13,300 nucleotides of DNA from positions 1 to 13,300 of the IMG/VR virus record IMGVR_UViG_2681813205_000017; one strand, given 5' to 3'. The notes beneath the pieces were generated by a model. It was not told the origin of the DNA. It made no database searches and was given only the letters and a program-made list of their open reading frames with translations. Source of the DNA: a virus. Taxonomy: Duplodnaviria > Heunggongvirae > Uroviricota > Caudoviricetes. Below are positions 2,829 through 13,300 of this stretch, one piece after another. The first letter of the stretch is position 1. Each line of letters starts with the position of its first letter. The translations under genes were made by a program, and so were the position numbers.

Positions 2829-3104
2829 TTAGCTGTCCTGGTAATTGCGCCATATTTCATCACCAGCACCATCTATACCCATTTCGGCATAAGTGCGATC
2901 GACTGCCTTTTTCAGGTCTCCGAAATTATCCGGCGGCTCCGGTGCCCTCTGTGCCTTCCTTGAACATTCCAGCCGTCGCATCGTGATGTGATGCCGTTCC
3001 TTGTCTGTCTCCACCAGCTGCATGACTTCACCCCATCGCGCCGCCGCCCTCCGGTAAAAGCCTTTCGCCTCTAGTTCCTCCGCTATGCGGTCATGTACCA
3101 TCGT
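2829..3104 (-). CDS. PerC-family transcriptional regulator (91 aa)
   Basis: N-terminal AEELEAKGFYRRAAARWGEVM matches the recalled PerC/Pch signature (LE-G-WRRAA-RW). The likely start is the ATG at 3104 (GAGGGGG Shine-Dalgarno, 8 nt after the SSB stop) rather than the ORF-track start at 3221, which would overlap ssb by 110 nt. Confidence 0.65.
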   Translation of the reverse strand, partial: TMVHDRIAEELEAKGFYRRAAARWGEVMQLVETDKERHHITMRRLECSRKAQRAPEPPDNFGDLKKAVDRTYAEMGIDGAGDEIWRNYQDS

Positions 3105-3111
3105 CACCCCC

Positions 3112-3522
3112 TCAGAACGAAATATCATCACCGTAAGGGTCATCGCCTCCCGCTGGTGGCTGATTACCCTGTGTGCCTGTGGTTTTGCGTCTGTTCCCGC
3201 CAGGACGTGCCGCACGGGCACTGATTACGCTGTCTGCAATAACCTGATACCCCTGCCGTGTTTCCCCGTTCTGTCCGGTCCACTGGCTTACCTGCATCGT
3301 GCCGGATACGCTGGCAACATCGCCTTTTTGATGTTTAGCCAGGAAATCGGCCTGTTTGCCAAATGCGATAACCGATAACCATAACGTCGCCTGTCCGTCA
3401 TGTGCCTGGCTGCATGGCAACGATACCGCCATACGCGCCAGAGTCATCGGTGTGCCCTTGCTGGTCTGTTTTACCTGCGGGTCGTCCACCAGCCGCCCGT
3501 AAGCGGCTATCTGTGCCGTCAT
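3112..3522 (-). CDS. ssb: Single-stranded DNA-binding protein (136 aa)
   Basis: OB-fold core resembles E. coli SSB (W-x-x-V-x-x-FGK ... KG ... W), followed by a Gly/Gln/Pro-rich linker and an acidic C-terminal tail DDPYGDDISF (E. coli SSB ends DDDIPF). GGAGAGGTG Shine-Dalgarno; ATGA overlap with the upstream gene. Confidence 0.85.
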   Translation of the reverse strand: MTAQIAAYGRLVDDPQVKQTSKGTPMTLARMAVSLPCSQAHDGQATLWLSVIAFGKQADFLAKHQKGDVASVSGTMQVSQWTGQNGETRQGYQVIADSVISARAARPGGNRRKTTGTQGNQPPAGGDDPYGDDISF

Positions 3523-3770
3523 AATTCCACCTCTCCGGTTTTAACGTTGATGGTTGTTACCTGTTCCGCTTCGGCAATCTCCCGTTCTGTCAGCGTGGCA
3601 AAGTTTGCCGCCGCCGTGGTCATGAATGCGCTTATCAGGTCGGGATGTTCCTTCGCGTATCCTTCCCGCGTGTGGCGGTCTATCGTTCTGATTGCCACCT
3701 TTAAGGTGTGCTCAGTCATGTCTAACGCTTTATATTTTGGCTCTGTTCTGTCTCTGCGTTTTTGGGTCAT
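3519..3770 (-). CDS. Hypothetical protein (83 aa from the ATG at 3770; alternative start at 3800 gives 93 aa)
   Basis: ORF translationally coupled to ssb (ATGA overlap). The ATG at 3770 has a GAGAGG ribosome-binding site and avoids overlap with the iterons. Confidence 0.5.
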   Translation of the reverse strand: MTQKRRDRTEPKYKALDMTEHTLKVAIRTIDRHTREGYAKEHPDLISAFMTTAAANFATLTEREIAEAEQVTTINVKTGEVEL

Positions 3771-3782
3771 TTCTCGCAACCT

Positions 3783-3973
3783 CTCACTTTTTCGCCTCAC
3801 TTTTTCAAGCGTCTCACTTCGTCGCAGCTGGGATTTTCGGTTTTTCTATGTGTGTGTTTCATAAGTATTTTTTTACCCCTCACTTTTGAGGATGTATACA
3901 GGTCGAAAAGTGAGGGAGAGCAGGCTAATTTTGGCCCTCTTTCTATCCACCTCGCTTTTGCTCCTCACTTTTA
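3783..3973. repeat. Putative replication origin: six CTCACTT(TT) iterons flanking an AT-rich stretch
   Basis: CTCACTT copies at 3783, 3796, 3813 and 3879, an inverted copy at 3906..3915 (AAAAGTGAGG) and another at 3963, plus a degenerate copy near 3950. AT-rich segment 3836..3876. Lies directly 3' of the helicase gene. Confidence 0.55.
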
Positions 3974-5371
3974 TAGCGGCGCTACATCATCCCCATCGAT
4001 ACGAATAACCCCATCTTTTTCCAGCTTGTACAGCCAGCGCCGGAAGTTTTTCATTTCATACCCCAGCTTTTTCATGTCATCACGTAACAGCGGGATCGTG
4101 CACTTGTCGCCGTTCTGTGTGCGTGAACGGATGCACCCCCATAGCGCGGTATGGTTTTCCGTCTTGTTCCCTGCCTCCTCGATGCGCTCCAGTTCAACAG
4201 GAGGGCGCGGATCATCCACCACCACCAGCGACGTGATTAATTCACCGTCAGCGTCGGTAAAAAGCTCCACCACGCGTAAGTCATATGCGGCTTCTTTGAG
4301 TTCCTCCGCGTCCTTCATTTTGGTGCATGAGATAACCAGCGCTTCGCTTCCTGCGTCCTCCCTGCGTATCCGGTATTCAGCATCCAGCGAAGCACGAAAT
4401 GCACTGGAACCGCGCGCGCCTTTCGTCTCATCCTTGCCGGAATGGTGAACCACCAGCACCGTGGCCCCTGTGCGTCGTTTCAGTTCGTCACAACCACGGA
4501 TAAACGCCCCCATATCACGGGAATCATTTTCATCATTCCCACCAAAGCAACGCGCCAGCGTATCCAGAATAATCATGCGTACAGGTTTACCCGTTTCCCG
4601 CTCCACCTGACGGGCAGCGATAACCATTTCATCAACATCAAGCGGGGCAGCCGGAAAGATGGGGCGGTTTACCAGATACAGATTTTTCACCTGCTCATCG
4701 TGCACAACCTCCCAGGCTTTTACACGACGCGGAACACCTATACCGCCTTCACCAACCACATAGAGAACCGCACCATGTGCAACCCTGCGGCCTCCCCACT
4801 GGCGACCAGTGGCAACATGGCACGCCCACGATCCGGCAAGGAATGATTTATAGGACCCGCTAGCCCCGTATATGCTGCATAGCGATACCGCCGGAATAAT
4901 CCCCTTAACCACGTAATCCAGTTGCGTGTCGTATCCGGTAGATCCAACGCTCATCGGTAGCGTGGTTTTTCGCTGGTGGTTTTTTTCTTCCGCCGGCTCT
5001 TTCCCGCGCACCCGTTCCAGGTATTCGCGCCAGTTCTCCCGCATATGGCTGTGCATCCCTTCGGGGTAATAATTCGCATCAGTTACACCCGCCGCCGCCA
5101 GCTTGTGCGCAATGGCATTAATATTTGATGGCCTGATGTGGCCTGCCTTGTACAGCCGGACACAATAGCGCCCCTCGTCGATGATTCTCAGGTCTGCCAG
5201 TTCATCCAGTTGATCATCAGCCAGCACAACGGGAGGCACATTATCGCCAGCCAGTCGCCCGTCCTGTTCCTGCCACTGTTTCGCATGTGCCCAGGCATCA
5301 CTACCCGCAAAAATAATGACTTCGGTCATCTTGTCGTAAGGCTGTTTTTTTAAGTTCGGTGCGCTTTTCAT
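3971..5371 (-). CDS. Replication initiator / replicative helicase, RecA-fold ATPase (RepA / AAA_25-like), 466 aa
   Basis: Walker A-like GASGSYKS, Walker B-like MIILDTLARCF, and VLVVHHSGKD typical of RepA/DnaB-like helicases of satellites and plasmids. ATGA overlap with the upstream gene; iterons immediately downstream. Confidence 0.75.
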   Translation of the reverse strand: MKSAPNLKKQPYDKMTEVIIFAGSDAWAHAKQWQEQDGRLAGDNVPPVVLADDQLDELADLRIIDEGRYCVRLYKAGHIRPSNINAIAHKLAAAGVTDANYYPEGMHSHMRENWREYLERVRGKEPAEEKNHQRKTTLPMSVGSTGYDTQLDYVVKGIIPAVSLCSIYGASGSYKSFLAGSWACHVATGRQWGGRRVAHGAVLYVVGEGGIGVPRRVKAWEVVHDEQVKNLYLVNRPIFPAAPLDVDEMVIAARQVERETGKPVRMIILDTLARCFGGNDENDSRDMGAFIRGCDELKRRTGATVLVVHHSGKDETKGARGSSAFRASLDAEYRIRREDAGSEALVISCTKMKDAEELKEAAYDLRVVELFTDADGELITSLVVVDDPRPPVELERIEEAGNKTENHTALWGCIRSRTQNGDKCTIPLLRDDMKKLGYEMKNFRRWLYKLEKDGVIRIDGDDVAPL

Positions 5372-5667
5372 TTCTTGCCCCTGAATCCGTTAATCATGGT
5401 TTTCAGCTTCTGGATGTTTGCCCGTGCCCTGGCGTTGCTGGTGGGCACGTTATGCGGCGCGGTCTGTACCAGAGAAAAATCACGCCGGAACTGATAAACA
5501 GGCATCACGCAATCATATTCGTAACCTTCACGGCGGTAGGTTACGCGCCGTTCTTCCACGCCCTTAATCATTACCGTGCCGCCGTACTGGTCGCGGTAAA
5601 TATCACCGCGCGTAAATTTAGGGTGAGTGTTGCCACTGGCAGTTAAGCCAGAATATTTAAGTTTCAT
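5368..5667 (-). CDS. Hypothetical protein (99 aa), translationally coupled to the helicase gene
   Basis: ATG at 5667; stop overlaps the helicase start (ATGA). Basic, Tyr/Arg-rich; no recognisable motif. Confidence 0.55.
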   Translation of the reverse strand: MKLKYSGLTASGNTHPKFTRGDIYRDQYGGTVMIKGVEERRVTYRREGYEYDCVMPVYQFRRDFSLVQTAPHNVPTSNARARANIQKLKTMINGFRGKK

Positions 5668-5906: not shown

Positions 5907-6357
5907 GGCTTACATCCTCAGGAAATTTTCTTCTATAACGCGCCTCTGCCACATATTCCGCATAATCGGCGGCGATATTCAGTACATCAAGCCCCGTTGA
6001 TTTATATTCTCTCGTGGAAAGTAAGAAAAAAGCCGCTCTAATAAGTTCTGGCATTGACGAAAGCGCATCAGCCGCATCATCAGGAACGCCGGAAAATTCC
6101 TGTTTCAGGGAATTAAAACGATCATCACGCATAACCCCCCCCCCATTTTCACAATCAGCAACAAGAATATTTTTAGCGTCATTCAGCGACCGCGTTGCGG
6201 TGTATCGGATACATTCCAGGGCGAATAGTGTGTATTCTTCCCTTTCTTCCCTTTCTTCCTTTTGTGCAAGCTCTGCTGTGCATTCAATATCAATAAGCGC
6301 GTGCATCAGCGTAGTGAGTGCGGCGGCGGCTGCGTCCGGTGTGGTTTTATTGCACAT
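5899..6357 (-). CDS. Hypothetical acidic protein (153 aa from the ATG at 6357) containing an in-frame G10 tract
   Basis: ATG at 6357 has a GGAGGGG Shine-Dalgarno 3 nt upstream. The ORF-track start at 6411 has no ribosome-binding site and would overlap the upstream gene by 65 nt. Contains an EEREEREE repeat and the Gly-Gly-Gly encoded by the C10 run at 6135..6144. Confidence 0.55.
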   Translation of the reverse strand: MCNKTTPDAAAAALTTLMHALIDIECTAELAQKEEREEREEYTLFALECIRYTATRSLNDAKNILVADCENGGGVMRDDRFNSLKQEFSGVPDDAADALSSMPELIRAAFFLLSTREYKSTGLDVLNIAADYAEYVAEARYRRKFPEDVSHA

Positions 6358-6577
6358 GTACCCCTCCGCATTTTTTTTCGTTAGAAATAAGCGTTCTTCT
6401 TTCCTGTTCATCGATCAGGAATACGCAGACCTCACCGCTAAGGCGTTTAAGTAAGCCGATGATTGCCCCTGATTCGCTGTCGGTCATCATGCCTGGGTAA
6501 TCCTCTGCCAGTGCGCAAATAACTTCGATTTGGTGGGCGCGTTCTACTGCCTGTTGTAGTGTGATTTCCTGGCTCAT
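6347..6577 (-). CDS. Hypothetical protein (76 aa)
   Basis: ATG at 6577 with a GGGGG ribosome-binding site; ATGA overlap with the candidate upstream ORF. Contains an A8 tract on the coding strand. Confidence 0.55.
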   Translation of the reverse strand: MSQEITLQQAVERAHQIEVICALAEDYPGMMTDSESGAIIGLLKRLSGEVCVFLIDEQERRTLISNEKKCGGVHVQ

Positions 6578-6774
6578 AAGCCTACCCCCTGACGAATACG
6601 GGCAGCGAATACCATCACGCAGCCAGCCGGGGATTGCAGGCGTGCTTCCTGTTCGCTGGTGGCCTCAATGGTAATCACGCGCGGTTGTGCAGTGCTCAGG
6701 GCGATAAAACGCCAAATGTATTTATTCAGGTTGTGCGAGTCCCGCCCTTGCGGGTGTGTGGTATGATTTCTCAT
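6574..6774 (-). CDS. Candidate small ORF (66 aa), putative first gene of the early operon
   Basis: Not listed separately in the ORF track; it is the C-terminal end of the spurious 381-aa ORF. ATG at 6774 with a GAGG ribosome-binding site 6 nt upstream; stop overlaps the next start (ATGA); ~100 nt downstream of the predicted - strand promoter. Confidence 0.4.
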   Translation of the reverse strand: MRNHTTHPQGRDSHNLNKYIWRFIALSTAQPRVITIEATSEQEARLQSPAGCVMVFAARIRQGVGL

Positions 6775-6872
6775 AGCTACCTCGATACTCTCGTTATCGT
6801 TGGTGGTTAGAAGCCCCGTTACTGCTCCTACAGTGCGGGGTTTCGTCGTTTCTGCACCTTGCATTAACAAGG

Positions 6873-6950
6873 TGTAAGTAACTTTATTTATAGGTGGCTT
6901 ACATGTCAATGCTTTTATGTAAGACTTTTTATGTGTATATTGTCTTACAC
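6873..6950. promoter_or_regulatory. Divergent switch region: four TGTAAG / CTTACA operator half-sites overlapping a - strand TTGACA-N17-TAAAGT promoter
   Basis: Half-sites at 6873 (TGTAAG), 6898 (CTTACA), 6919 (TGTAAG) and 6945 (CTTACA), alternating in orientation. On the - strand a perfect -35 TTGACA (complement of 6904..6909) and a -10 TAAAGT (complement of 6881..6886) with a 17-bp spacer. Confidence 0.5.
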
Positions 6951-6970
6951 TTTCATTGAGAGGATTACAG

Positions 6971-7276
6971 ATGGCTACAGGTTCAAAAAACGCAAAATCA
7001 CAATCACTGACAGCTCGGATCCCGCATGATGTTATTGAAGGCATGGAATCCGTAAAACTGGACGGTGAAAGCAACGCCGGATTCATAGTAACCGCCATGC
7101 GCGGTGAAATCGCCCGCCGCCAGGCAGAAGGAAGCGGAGAAAACCTCCTGATTTCTTCGCTCAATGCACTGGCGCAGGTGGAAAAACTCGGAATCAAAGC
7201 CGCCGAGGAGATCGGGCAGCTCGTCACTGTCGCACGTGAAGAACTCCAGCGCCGCAAGACTAAAGAACCAGAGTAA
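6971..7276 (+). CDS. Putative transcriptional regulator, candidate repressor of the early operon (101 aa)
   Basis: ATG at 6971 with a GAGAGGA Shine-Dalgarno. Divergent from the - strand operon and immediately downstream of the operator cluster. Function is inferred from position only. Confidence 0.55.
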   Translation: MATGSKNAKSQSLTARIPHDVIEGMESVKLDGESNAGFIVTAMRGEIARRQAEGSGENLLISSLNALAQVEKLGIKAAEEIGQLVTVAREELQRRKTKEPE

Positions 7277-7318
7277 TCACCATCAGCGCCGTGGTGTAAG
7301 GTATTACGGCGCATTGCT

Positions 7319-7507
7319 ATGCAGGACAACACAATGACCGATAAAGAATTGACCAAAACATTATCACCGGCACGGAAAAGACGGCGCAGAAAGATAGAGC
7401 ATGAATCAGAAAGATTCGCGCCATGTGCTTTTGCCCTTGAGCAATTCCTTAAAGAGTACAGGGAAAAGCGCTCATTGCAGGTATGGCAACGAACTGAACC
7501 AGACTGA
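7319..7507 (+). CDS. Small basic protein (62 aa; alternative start at 7334)
   Basis: ORF following the regulator on the same strand, with a Lys/Arg-rich stretch (ARKRRRRK). Followed by an intrinsic terminator at 7603..7630. Confidence 0.4.
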   Translation: MQDNTMTDKELTKTLSPARKRRRRKIEHESERFAPCAFALEQFLKEYREKRSLQVWQRTEPD

Positions 7508-7602
7508 TAGCATTGCCCACCAGCCTGATAGCGACTATCATTGCCGTTCTTATGTTTGGGATCACACACACAAACGGCGCAGCGGGTTATCTGTTCAGAA
7601 AG

Positions 7603-7630
7603 GCGGCTCCATTTCGGGGCCGCTTTTTTT
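7603..7630 (+). terminator. Intrinsic terminator for the + strand regulator genes
   Basis: GCGGCUCC ... GGGGCCGC stem (one G-U wobble) with a 5-nt loop, followed by seven T. Confidence 0.6.
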
Positions 7631-7776
7631 ATGTCTGAAAAACCCCAATTTTGTTGTTTTTCAGTTTCACCAGGGCGAACGAATCCCCGCCCACGTTCTG
7701 GCGTATATTCAATCTTCATGGTTATAGCTCTGTGTTCAGATGATTGATGTGTGGCGGCTGCGTGCCGCCAGCGTGA

Positions 7777-7965
7777 TTAATGAACTGCCTTGCAGCTATC
7801 CTTCCAGGCCAGAACCTCGGATAAAGACCAGCCAACGGAACGACCGCCAAGTTTACGACGTGATGGGAATTGTCCGGCCTTTTCCAGGCGGTAGCGACAC
7901 GTACGGCTAAGGCCGGTTAGTTTTTCGCATTCTTTTTCACGTATAAACCGATCAGTGCTTAACAC
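7777..7965 (-). CDS. alpA: AlpA-family phage regulator / excisionase-like protein (62 aa from GTG at 7965)
   Basis: CEKLTGLSRTCRYRLEKAGQFP ... GGRSVGWSLSEVLAWK matches the AlpA helix-turn-helix signature. The ORF track starts at a TTG at 8046, but a GTG at 7965 has an AGGGGGG Shine-Dalgarno and gives the typical AlpA length. Confidence 0.75.
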   Translation of the reverse strand: MLSTDRFIREKECEKLTGLSRTCRYRLEKAGQFPSRRKLGGRSVGWSLSEVLAWKDSCKAVH

Positions 7966-8238
7966 TATTGCCCCCCTTTCGTTTCTTAAAGAGTCATCAG
8001 GTGTCTTATTGTGTCGTATTGTTCCCGCTAGAGTGATGAATGGCAAATATTGAGGATGTATGATTTACAGAAAATGAAACAGTAAGAATAAAATCTTTTA
8101 AATTCATGTTAATACAAAGGCATAAAATATTGTTTCATGCCTTTTTTCTCACGCGTTAAAGCGTTATTCGCTAATGTATAAAAAAACAGTCACACAAATA
8201 AAATCAGTCACTTATAAACCTGTGTACTTTTTCGCCTC

Positions 8239-8330: not shown

Positions 8331-9548
8331 TTATTTTCTTCTGGCTGCTGGTAGTGCGGTTACGTTTTCATGTGTTCCCGCCAGTATCCCTAACCGCTCC
8401 ATCCACATATCCAGCGCATTGCGTTTAGCATCCAGATAACGGGAATGATTATAAACTCGCTGCATTCCTGGCATCTGGTGGCCTGTAAGCTGCTCCACGA
8501 CATGCGGATCAACGCCTAAATCGTTCAGCATGGTTGTAAAGGTGCGCCGGATGTCATGCAGTGACCAGTGAGGATGATTAAGCCTCCTGTGCGCTAATCT
8601 TCCATACTGCGATACGCTGGCCTCCTGTTTCACTTCCCCCAGCAATAAGCCCGTGTGCCTGTTCTGCTCCACCAGCTGCGTGACGAACGGCAGTATTGCT
8701 TCCGGTATGGGCCGGAATATTGCCACCTTCGTTTTGCTGTGTTCTTTCGGCACGGTCCAGAGCATTTCGGTAAAATCCCACTCGCTGATCTCCGATAACC
8801 TCAGTTCTACCGTCCGGCATCCGAACACAATCAGGAGGCGGATTAACGCGATGTAGTAGGGGGAGAATATTTTTTTGTCCAGTGCCTGCAATAATTCGCC
8901 CAGTTCTTTGGTGCTTAAGACACGCTCGCTTATATCCGGTTTTTTCCCAACGTCCGCCACACTCATATCATCAAGAACGTTGCTGATTGCATAGCGCCGC
9001 CTCCGGCAGAACTTAAGCGCCTGTTTGCACGTCTGTAGCAAGAATCCGGCAGTAACAGGCGTTCGCTTTGCCACCTGGTCAAAACAGGCCAGCCAGTGCC
9101 GTAGCTCGCATTTATCCAGCGGCATAGCACCAATGTGCTGTATTACGTGATTATTAAGTCGCCTTTTCAGGGCGATATAATCCACGCGGTTTTCCTTTAC
9201 GTAATACTCAAGCCAGTAGGTGAGCGCATCGCCAACCGTTACGGGCTTTAACGCTTCCTGTACGGTGTAATTCATCTCATGACGTGGATTTTTCCCCTCA
9301 GCCAGCCATGTGCGACACTGTGCGGCTTTTTCCCTGGCTGCTTTCAGGCTCAGATCAGGATAACTTCCCAGCTTAATGCGTTCGGGTCGTGTCTCCCTTC
9401 CCGTTCCGGCCCTGTATGTGAAATACCAGGTCAATTTCCCTGATGTTAAATATTTCACGCTCAGGTTTCCGCCATCACTATAAAACGTGTTTTTCTCCGC
9501 TGGCTTACCATGAAGTTTCCTTAGCAAGGTATCGCTCAGTTTGTTCAT
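8331..9548 (-). CDS. int: Tyrosine integrase, P4-like family
   Basis: N-terminal arm-binding-type motif (KPAEKNTFYSDGGNLSVKYL), C-terminal catalytic region with HDIRRT and VYNHSRY (R, H-x-x-R, Y). Start is probably the ATG at 9548 (MNKLSD...); the ORF track uses a GTG at 9560. It is the outermost island gene next to the junction. Confidence 0.85.
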   Translation of the reverse strand: MNKLSDTLLRKLHGKPAEKNTFYSDGGNLSVKYLTSGKLTWYFTYRAGTGRETRPERIKLGSYPDLSLKAAREKAAQCRTWLAEGKNPRHEMNYTVQEALKPVTVGDALTYWLEYYVKENRVDYIALKRRLNNHVIQHIGAMPLDKCELRHWLACFDQVAKRTPVTAGFLLQTCKQALKFCRRRRYAISNVLDDMSVADVGKKPDISERVLSTKELGELLQALDKKIFSPYYIALIRLLIVFGCRTVELRLSEISEWDFTEMLWTVPKEHSKTKVAIFRPIPEAILPFVTQLVEQNRHTGLLLGEVKQEASVSQYGRLAHRRLNHPHWSLHDIRRTFTTMLNDLGVDPHVVEQLTGHQMPGMQRVYNHSRYLDAKRNALDMWMERLGILAGTHENVTALPAARRK

Positions 9549-9584
9549 TGCTCTGCTCACGTTTTACCCCCTCTTTACGAAAAA

Positions 9585-9757: not shown

Positions 9758-10642
9758 GTGCAACACATGGTCCGCTGGCGAGTGCCGCGTGTACTGGCGG
9801 TGTCGATTTTGATGACCATCATCGTGATGGCGATGGTGTTGCTATTAGCTTATCTGGGTTCCGCGCTCAACGAGTTGACGCGGACGTTACCGCAATATCG
9901 CAACTCTATTATGACGCCGCTGCAAGCTCTTGAGCCGTTGTTGCAACGCGTAGGGATTGACGTCTCAGTTGACCAGCTGGCGCATTACATTGATCCGAAC
10001 GCGGCGATGACGTTGCTCACCAACTTATTGACGCAGTTATCTAATGCCATGTCATCAATATTTTTATTGCTGCTGACGGTGCTGTTTATGCTGCTCGAAG
10101 TGCCACAATTGCCCGGAAAATTTCAGCAAATGATGGCGCGTCCGGTTGAAGGGATGGCGGCGATTCAACGTGCAATTGACAGTGTTTCTCATTATCTGGT
10201 GCTGAAAACAGCCATCAGCATCATCACCGGCCTGGTCGCCTGGGCGATGCTCGCCGCACTCGATGTTCGCTTCGCTTTTGTCTGGGGATTGCTGGCCTTT
10301 GCGCTTAATTACATCCCTAATATTGGTTCAGTTCTCGCGGCAATCCCCCCTATCGCTCAGGTACTGGTGTTTAATGGCTTCTACGAAGCGTTGCTGGTGC
10401 TGGCGGGATATCTGCTGATTAATCTGGTCTTCGGCAATATTCTGGAGCCGCGCATCATGGGACGTGGGCTGGGGCTTTCCACATTGGTGGTATTTTTGTC
10501 GTTGATTTTTTGGGGATGGTTGTTAGGACCGGTGGGTATGCTGCTTTCCGTGCCGTTAACAATTATTGTCAAAATTGCGCTTGAACAAACAGCGGGAGGT
10601 CAAAGCATCGCCGTTCTGTTAAGCGATCTCAATAAAGAGTGA
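9758..10642 (+). CDS. tqsA: AI-2 exporter TqsA (YdgG), 5'-truncated by the island insertion (294 codons retained)
   Basis: Translation matches recalled E. coli TqsA from its internal [15 protein letters not shown] segment to the C-terminal SDLNKE. An in-frame TAA at 9731..9733 lies directly upstream and there is no native N-terminus or ribosome-binding site. The ORF-track start is an internal GTG. Confidence 0.8.
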
Positions 10643-10666: not shown

Positions 10667-12058
<1,392 letters not shown>

Positions 12059-12065
12059 TTACCCC

Positions 12066-13300
<1,235 letters not shown>

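Follow-up and report, generated by a model that had tools for sequence, protein, structure and literature searches.

The closest described relatives of the locus analysed here are the replication origins of the Gram-negative PICIs. [quoted passage not shown] 2018, ISME J; PMC6092414). In the SaPI paradigm six to twelve iterons are placed directly downstream of rep with a central AT-rich region, and the iterons are read by a C-terminal winged helix of the SaPI Rep (PMC9371898). An analogy with P4 is drawn in the PICI study (PMC6092414). A preliminary description of the present locus had proposed an iteron-type origin immediately 3' of a helicase gene, an interpretation that, in the light of the PICI and SaPI descriptions, matches a described class. 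The alpha protein of P4 combines a primase with an SF3 helicase. Its C-terminal winged-helix domain reads short repeated sites, and a second iteron cluster at a distance (crr) is also required. RepA of RSF1010 is not known to have an origin-binding domain and depends on RepC, a separate iteron-binding initiator.

The locus lies in a window of 13,300 nucleotides, by which we mean the whole stretch of DNA that was analysed, and the gap at positions 3771–3970 of this window is very probably the Rep-bound vegetative replication origin of the satellite carried there. The iteron-origin interpretation is supported by its position, layout and genomic context, which match the published Gram-negative PICI origin (PMC6092414).

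Identity and gene order of the satellite

Sequence comparison identifies the window as an integrated E. coli PICI-type phage satellite of the EcCI042 type. The window is 97% identical to EcCI042, the named PICI of E. coli 042, which sits in tqsA, the insertion site of the window element as well; the origin is identical at 197/200 positions (98.5%) and the helicase at 465/466. It is also 99.5% identical to the O103:H2 PICI in the table of PMC6092414, and the O103:H2 12009 copy falls in an interval given as a PICI in that paper (Fillol-Salom et al. 2018). By the features used to recognise PICI host elements (an integrase, AlpA, a unidirectional operon, a length of ~11 kb and a specific att site) the element is classed as a PICI.

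Domain and family matches place on the minus strand a tyrosine integrase (8331–9560), AlpA (7777–8046), DUF4222 (5368–5667), rep (3971–5371), which encodes a 466-aa AAA_25 ATPase (Pfam E 2.4e-43), an SSB (3112–3522), PerC (2829–3221), a gpE-like capsid protein (965–2020) and a gpD-like decoration protein (617–952). The int, alpA, rep, ssb, perC and capsid genes thus all share one strand, and their int-alpA-...-rep-ori-ssb-perC-capsid/decoration order is that of Gram-negative PICIs and of EcCI042. Between rep and ssb, also on the minus strand, is an 83-aa ORF (orf83, 3519–3770), a match to PHROG 1231 of function not known, with its start placed as in the RefSeq annotation of the 99.8%-identical O103:H2 locus. 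It forms the boundary of the origin, and the array does not require it.

The integrase end of the satellite adjoins a 5'-truncated tqsA (AI-2 exporter, 9758–10642, plus strand), beyond which lie pntB (10667–12055, minus strand) and pntA (12066–13295, minus strand), the latter running past the window edge. Between the Icd-like and YlcI-like genes, positions 6192–7246 are absent from EcCI042 and only partly common with the O103:H2 element, and are for that reason regarded as a mosaic accessory region. A 381-aa ORF at 6574–7719 (minus strand) looks spurious.

Many STEC chromosomes carry loci with 99.8% identity to the rep-ori region, and 1,644 of 5,426 complete E. coli genomes, many STEC included, match this region at some level. 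A phage genome collection gave no nucleotide match to rep-ori, and the six E. coli records matched in a plasmid collection were for the most part very large or resembled chromosomes, with no bona fide small plasmid carrying this rep-ori among them. The record NZ_CP148328.1, a 10,790-bp circular "plasmid", has a primase-type rep allele together with the common N-terminal domain and DUF4222, and may be an excised PICI that was assembled as a plasmid.

Organization of the iteron array

The preliminary description counted six copies of CTCACTT, five direct and one inverted, and an exact search of the 13.3-kb window returns this count, with plus-strand copies at 3783, 3796, 3813, 3879 and 3964 and a minus-strand copy at 3908–3914. 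All six are confined to 188 bp (3783–3970), with zero elsewhere in the window; the number expected in the whole window is 0.91, and the maximum in 200 dinucleotide-preserving shuffles was 4. It is extremely unlikely that this clustering is chance or low-complexity sequence, an explanation favoured by nothing except the T-richness of the strand, since none of the 200 shuffles reached six copies in the whole window and the same slots are filled in ~80 independent loci. A repeat finder extends the unit to C-CTCACTT-TT, about 10 nt long (9–10 bp), which on the gene strand reads AAAAGTGAGG.

The gap between rep and the next gene measures 200 bp (3771–3970), and the array begins on the rep stop codon and fills the gap. 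The last copy, said earlier to abut the helicase stop, indeed touches it: the core spans 3964–3970 and the extended unit (CTCACTTTT, 3964–3972) overlaps the TAA (complement of 3971–3973). This copy is one of a rep-proximal pair (3951–3972), the other being a seventh, degenerate copy, CTCGCTT at 3951–3957 (extended unit CTCGCTTTT, 3951–3959), which lies 13 bp ahead of it; in the sister alleles L004, L006 and L008 neither copy of the pair has a mismatch. The inverted iteron pair occupies 3877–3916 and has 11-nt arms (CCCTCACTTTT at 3877–3887 and AAAAGTGAGGG at 3906–3916) that are 18 nt apart and 100% complementary, with TGTATACA at their centre (3893–3900). The rep-distal block (3783–3819) consists of three direct iterons at 3783–3791, 3796–3804 and 3813–3819, the first of which overlaps the Shine-Dalgarno sequence of the next gene. 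This block has the same position in all alleles, and its core changes together with the other copies. A 22-nt two-unit repeat is found at each end of the array (3783–3804 and 3951–3972), the latter holding the CTCGCTT copy.

The earlier statement that the copies flank an AT-rich segment is correct in that iterons are present on both sides of it, three at 3783–3819 and four (one degenerate) at 3879–3972, the whole being located directly 3' of the replication initiator gene as in PICI origins. The flank is not a symmetric one, because two of the copies (3879 and 3908) make up a perfect inverted pair, and the order is therefore three direct copies, the AT-rich tract, the inverted pair and two direct copies. 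The proposed likeness to both satellite and plasmid origins holds for the satellite origins (PICI/SaPI) and fails for the classical plasmid iteron origins. The latter have phased iterons of 17–22 bp and a Rep_3 initiator, whereas the window units are of 9–10 bp with direct-repeat spacings of 13 and 17 bp and no helical phasing; the array is unlike the classical type in its unit length, in the lack of ~22-bp phasing and in the lack of a Rep_3-type initiator, no Rep_3 domain being found in the 19 window ORFs scanned against Pfam (rep and its neighbours included).

The sole DnaA-box-like string of the array region, CTATCCACC at ~3943–3951, resembles the DnaA box TTATNCACA at 7/9 positions. It reads CTATCCCCC in the O103:H2 locus (L001) and in EcCI042, and is probably fortuitous, as the other aligned alleles do not keep it; among the aligned alleles there is no conserved DnaA box beside the iterons.

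The AT-rich tract and the dyad centre

The AT-rich segment was described correctly: the 40 nt at 3833–3872 have a GC content of 0.25, compared with 0.50 for the whole window, and rank in the lowest 1.2% of all window 40-mers by GC. The full tract, proposed as the DNA-unwinding element, extends over 3833–3876 (GC 0.25–0.33). In the origins mapped from Xenorhabdus and of the E. coli type, the lowest-GC 40-mer (GC 0.175–0.25) begins 97–99 nt past the rep stop.

Of 86 unique related origins, 78 have an inverted iteron pair with TATA at its centre by a relaxed test that accepts any TATA, and just 37 have a strict GTATAY centre. At the dyad centre itself (window 3893–3900, with equivalents in L002–L089) a YRTATATAY string is conserved irrespective of iteron class (78 of the 86). 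Melting might begin at the dyad centre, or a conserved part of Rep might make contact there.

A hairpin could also arise from the 11-nt inverted pair, whose arms would still pair after the T-to-C and A-to-G changes seen in them, so the inverted pair and the repeats might be read as a structured RNA (a terminator, a stabiliser or a small RNA) within the rep-ssb transcript. This explanation is very improbable. The gap folds no more stably than shuffles (RNA z = -0.79, DNA z = -0.49), it has no Rfam match (a scan of 3400–4300 gave one sub-threshold chance match, outside the gap), and a terminator scan found no gene-strand terminator and one weak, non-conserved hairpin on the plus strand. Moreover, the five direct copies change together as well, which a hairpin does not explain.

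Conservation of the probable origin across loci

Nine E. coli loci (L001–L009) were compared with the window, eight of them diverged alleles with 63–95% protein identity. The gap after rep is 200–202 bp in 8/9 of these loci. The exception is L006 (E. coli ETEC1738; L006:1049–1526), where a 478-bp gap holds a tandem duplication of the origin, giving two complete modules that both have the full set of inverted iteron pair, AT tract and direct copies. All aligned alleles share one plan on the gene strand: the stop TAA is fused to AAAAGTGNG, with a second copy 13 bp on and sometimes a third, followed by a variable ~30-bp spacer, the inverted pair around CTGTATAYA, the A-rich tract, and three or four direct copies, the last of which lies over the ribosome-binding site of the next gene. 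In the pairs L004/L005 and L006/L003 the gaps differ at ~30% of positions while the iteron slots are kept, and the last 240 nt of rep differ by 5–8%, so that the repeats stand out as constrained sites within a spacer that evolves rapidly.

When one genome per species was scanned, 80 further loci with homologous helicases were obtained, from Citrobacter, Xenorhabdus, Kosakonia, Kluyvera, Pantoea, Serratia, Pectobacterium, Morganella, Erwinia, Dickeya and an Oceanospirillaceae MAG. Of 87 loci, 80 have at least four copies of a short non-AT motif in the 263 bp that follow rep on its 3' side, and the motif density is 25.4 per kb in this 263-bp stretch compared with 0.49 per kb elsewhere in the loci. 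In the 80 other-genus loci, which like all comparison loci were chosen by Rep homology, the array is accompanied by the ATPase in 80/80 and by the winged helix in 78/80; orf83, SSB and PerC were found in none of these loci, DUF4222 was found in 2 and the Rep N-terminal domain in 1. The products of orf83, ssb and perC and the DUF4222 protein were considered as readers of the repeats and rejected, being missing from nearly all other-genus array loci; orf83 is also missing from L006 and L008, which keep the array.

The repeats might instead be an array of transcriptional operators, bound by Rep or another regulator for control of ssb-perC-capsid or for autoregulation, with replication starting elsewhere. 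Iteron-binding plasmid initiators often autoregulate, and here iterons lie over the Shine-Dalgarno sequence of the following gene (the first distal copy) and over the rep stop (the last copy), so that a bound protein would sit on the path of the transcript. We nevertheless consider the operator explanation improbable. A promoter scan found no sigma-70-like promoter in the gap, the array is kept where the downstream genes differ entirely, the window has no second iteron cluster that could act as the true origin, and in EcCICFT073 and SaPIs experiments have shown that an AT tract flanked by iterons and located directly 3' of rep is the origin. A regulatory side effect is compatible with origin function.

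Rep and its co-variation with the iterons

The 466-aa Rep has an N-terminal, portable domain (residues ~1–125), a RecA-fold AAA_25/RepA-like ATPase (~135–395) with the Walker A motif GASGSYKS at residues 169–176, and a C-terminal winged helix (~400–466). In Pfam it matches AAA_25 alone, with no D5/Pox_D5, Zn-ribbon, Toprim or other primase domain, and a sequence search of the PDB gave RSF1010 RepA as the single match, a weak one. The AF2 model of Rep is poor overall (mean pLDDT 65, pTM 0.43) and is confident in the C- and N-terminal domains only. The winged helix is encoded at 3974–4174 on the minus strand (residues 400–466), directly before the array, and its predicted recognition helix, H3, comprises residues 443–452. 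Asn-442, the proposed specificity residue (AAC codon, 4046–4048), caps helix 3 in the model.

The core of the iteron is uniform within one origin and differs between loci, where it reads CTCAC, CCCAC, CCCCCAC or GCCGCAC; that all copies of an origin change together requires a common reader. The variable base of the iteron co-varies with the residue at X of a C-terminal Rep motif, K-X-F-x-R-W. Where X is Asn the gene-strand iteron is AAGTG-A-GG and where X is His it is AAGTG-G-GG, while Lys-Lys is found with GTG-G-GGGAA and Arg-Lys-Ser, which has a one-residue insertion, with AAGTG-C-GGCA. The set was enlarged by 80 IMG/VR loci, giving 64 unique E. coli-type combinations of winged helix and origin with 26 distinct winged-helix sequences. 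Among these 64 combinations His occurs with a G-type origin in 34/34 cases and Asn with an A-type origin in 30/30, with zero exceptions. The alleles L004 and L005, whose iteron classes differ, differ at 2/71 winged-helix residues, the switch being a single AAC/CAC change, and the sole difference between L163 and L125 from residue 410 on is at the equivalent of residue 442. The pairings agree with the usual preferences in direct readout, of Asn for adenine and of His or Lys for guanine.

Part of this co-variation could be co-inheritance, because the coding region of the winged helix adjoins the origin, and nominal or exact-test P values would overstate the evidence, because the sequences are phylogenetically related. 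The argument is carried by the recurrence of the switch on different backgrounds and by the concerted change at six to eleven sites per origin. Two hybrid origins (L004:1741–1941 and L008:1417–1617) accompany a Rep with Asn-442 and have mostly AAGTGAG iterons, with 2/7 copies, both rep-distal, of the His type (AGTGGGG). These copies of the other class weigh against the proposal that Rep reads the iterons of its origin, and they suggest recombination breakpoints inside the origin.

The co-variation also bears on the possibility that the repeats are a packaging site (pac or cosB-like), to which a small terminase or a redirecting protein would bind. Such a site would fit with the known binding of small terminase subunits to short repeats and with the TerS encoded by related PICIs, but the repeat core co-varies with the winged helix of Rep, and the array always adjoins rep, even where the 2.5-kb flanks hold no homologue of the neighbours in the window. 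In EcCICFT073 the cos sites are reported as distinct from ori and were tested independently of it (PMC6092414). A packaging site is accordingly a very unlikely explanation of the array.

Three in silico observations support the predicted binding of the 466-aa protein to the repeats: the confidently modelled winged helix, the co-variation of the N-cap residue, and the constant presence of the ATPase and winged helix alongside the array. Under the proposed N-cap code A would be specified by Asn, G by His or Lys, and C by Ser (in the form with the one-residue insertion). We lean towards, by a modest margin over the contrary, a RecA-fold (SF4) helicase that reads its own origin through a C-terminal winged helix and a near one-residue/one-base N-cap code. 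A biochemical characterisation of a RecA-fold helicase with its own origin-reading winged helix was not found in the literature and the PDB as searched.

Proposed mechanism of initiation

For an origin of this kind we infer binding, melting, self-loading, helicase polarity and host-factor roles as follows. The 466-aa protein would be origin-recognition protein and replicative helicase in one. After induction its winged-helix domains would read the 9–10-bp iterons, with Asn-442 at the start of the recognition helix specifying the A in GTG-A-G, and Rep molecules would accumulate at the inverted pair with its TATA-containing centre as well as at both blocks of direct repeats. The inverted pair, placed beside the AT tract, may be the site at which two Rep assemblies meet facing each other. 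The AT-rich tract, and possibly the TATA centre too, would then melt, and the RecA-fold ring, of the RSF1010 RepA or DnaB-like kind, would load itself on the single strand; for an SF4-like core of this fold the predicted polarity is 5'-3'. The excised circle would be copied by host primase and polymerase, aided by the element's own SSB.

Comparison with known initiators and origins

The iteron array would work like the Gram-negative PICI origin class, of which it is a member by position, layout and host element, and it is essentially the EcCI042 origin. The supplements of PMC6092414 contain no CTCACTT or AAGTGAG string. The Pri-Rep of EcCICFT073 is of the D5_N/DUF5906/Pox_D5 (SF3-type) kind and has only its first 125 residues in common with the window helicase (62% identity), and the EcCICFT073 iterons, TGTCTACC/GGTAGA, are unrelated to those of the window. 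With both motor and iterons unrelated, the experimental proof concerns a different allele.

SaPI origins resemble the window array in having short iterons downstream of rep, an AT-rich region, and, as is proposed for the window Rep, a helicase that is its own initiator. The SaPI Reps, however, are AAA+ (pre-sensor II insert/MCM-like) 3'-5' helicases, whereas the core of the window Rep is a RecA-fold AAA_25 domain, and the SaPI iterons are penta- or hexanucleotides, compared with the 9–10-bp unit of the window. In SaPIs two opposed sets of iterons lie on the two sides, whereas in the window one of seven copies is inverted (3908–3914), the copies beyond the AT tract point the same way as those near rep, and the dyad lies beside the AT tract rather than across it.

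The alpha protein of P4, itself from an enterobacterial phage satellite, has helicase and origin binding in one polypeptide, as is proposed for the window Rep, but the window helicase is of the AAA_25 type with no detectable primase domain, and no second CTCACTT cluster is found in the window. Compared with RepA of RSF1010 (IncQ; PDB ID 1G8Y), the window Rep has a winged helix of its own and an extra N-terminal domain. In Xenorhabdus and Serratia the relatives are ~680-aa fusions of Zn-ribbon primase, Toprim, AAA_25 and winged helix (L011:1544–3586 and L052:1508–3544) with the same iteron layout 3' of the gene, and the Pectobacterium and Morganella relatives, judged by their similar length, are probably primase fusions of the same kind. 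The Zn-ribbon primase, Toprim and AAA_25 domains of the Xenorhabdus and Serratia proteins follow the same order as in T7 gp4, from which these relatives differ in the extra C-terminal winged helix and the adjacent iteron origin, and the window Rep differs from the T7 gp4 type in that the Zn-ribbon and Toprim Pfam domains are both missing.

Significance

The feature is already known, in that the origin class and a near-identical element were published in 2018, and for this reason the finding adds little by itself. The pattern of residues and bases and the three-block layout with a conserved dyad centre were not found in the literature searched, and would be refinements of the known origin class. 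As annotation, the analysis fixes the probable origin and initiator for a satellite family that matches ~1,600 of 5,426 complete E. coli genomes. What it usefully adds is a prediction, namely that Asn-442 appears to set the specificity for the iterons in a helicase-initiator with a motor unlike that of EcCICFT073 and that of the SaPIs, to neither of which it is related. If this is true, single point mutations would create orthogonal classes of Rep and origin, a cell could harbour several related satellites with no cross-talk between them, and the L004/L008 hybrid origins and the duplicated origins of L006 would be intermediates of specificity switches. It would also provide a handle for designing orthogonal satellite replicons and for predicting the incompatibility of co-resident PICIs.
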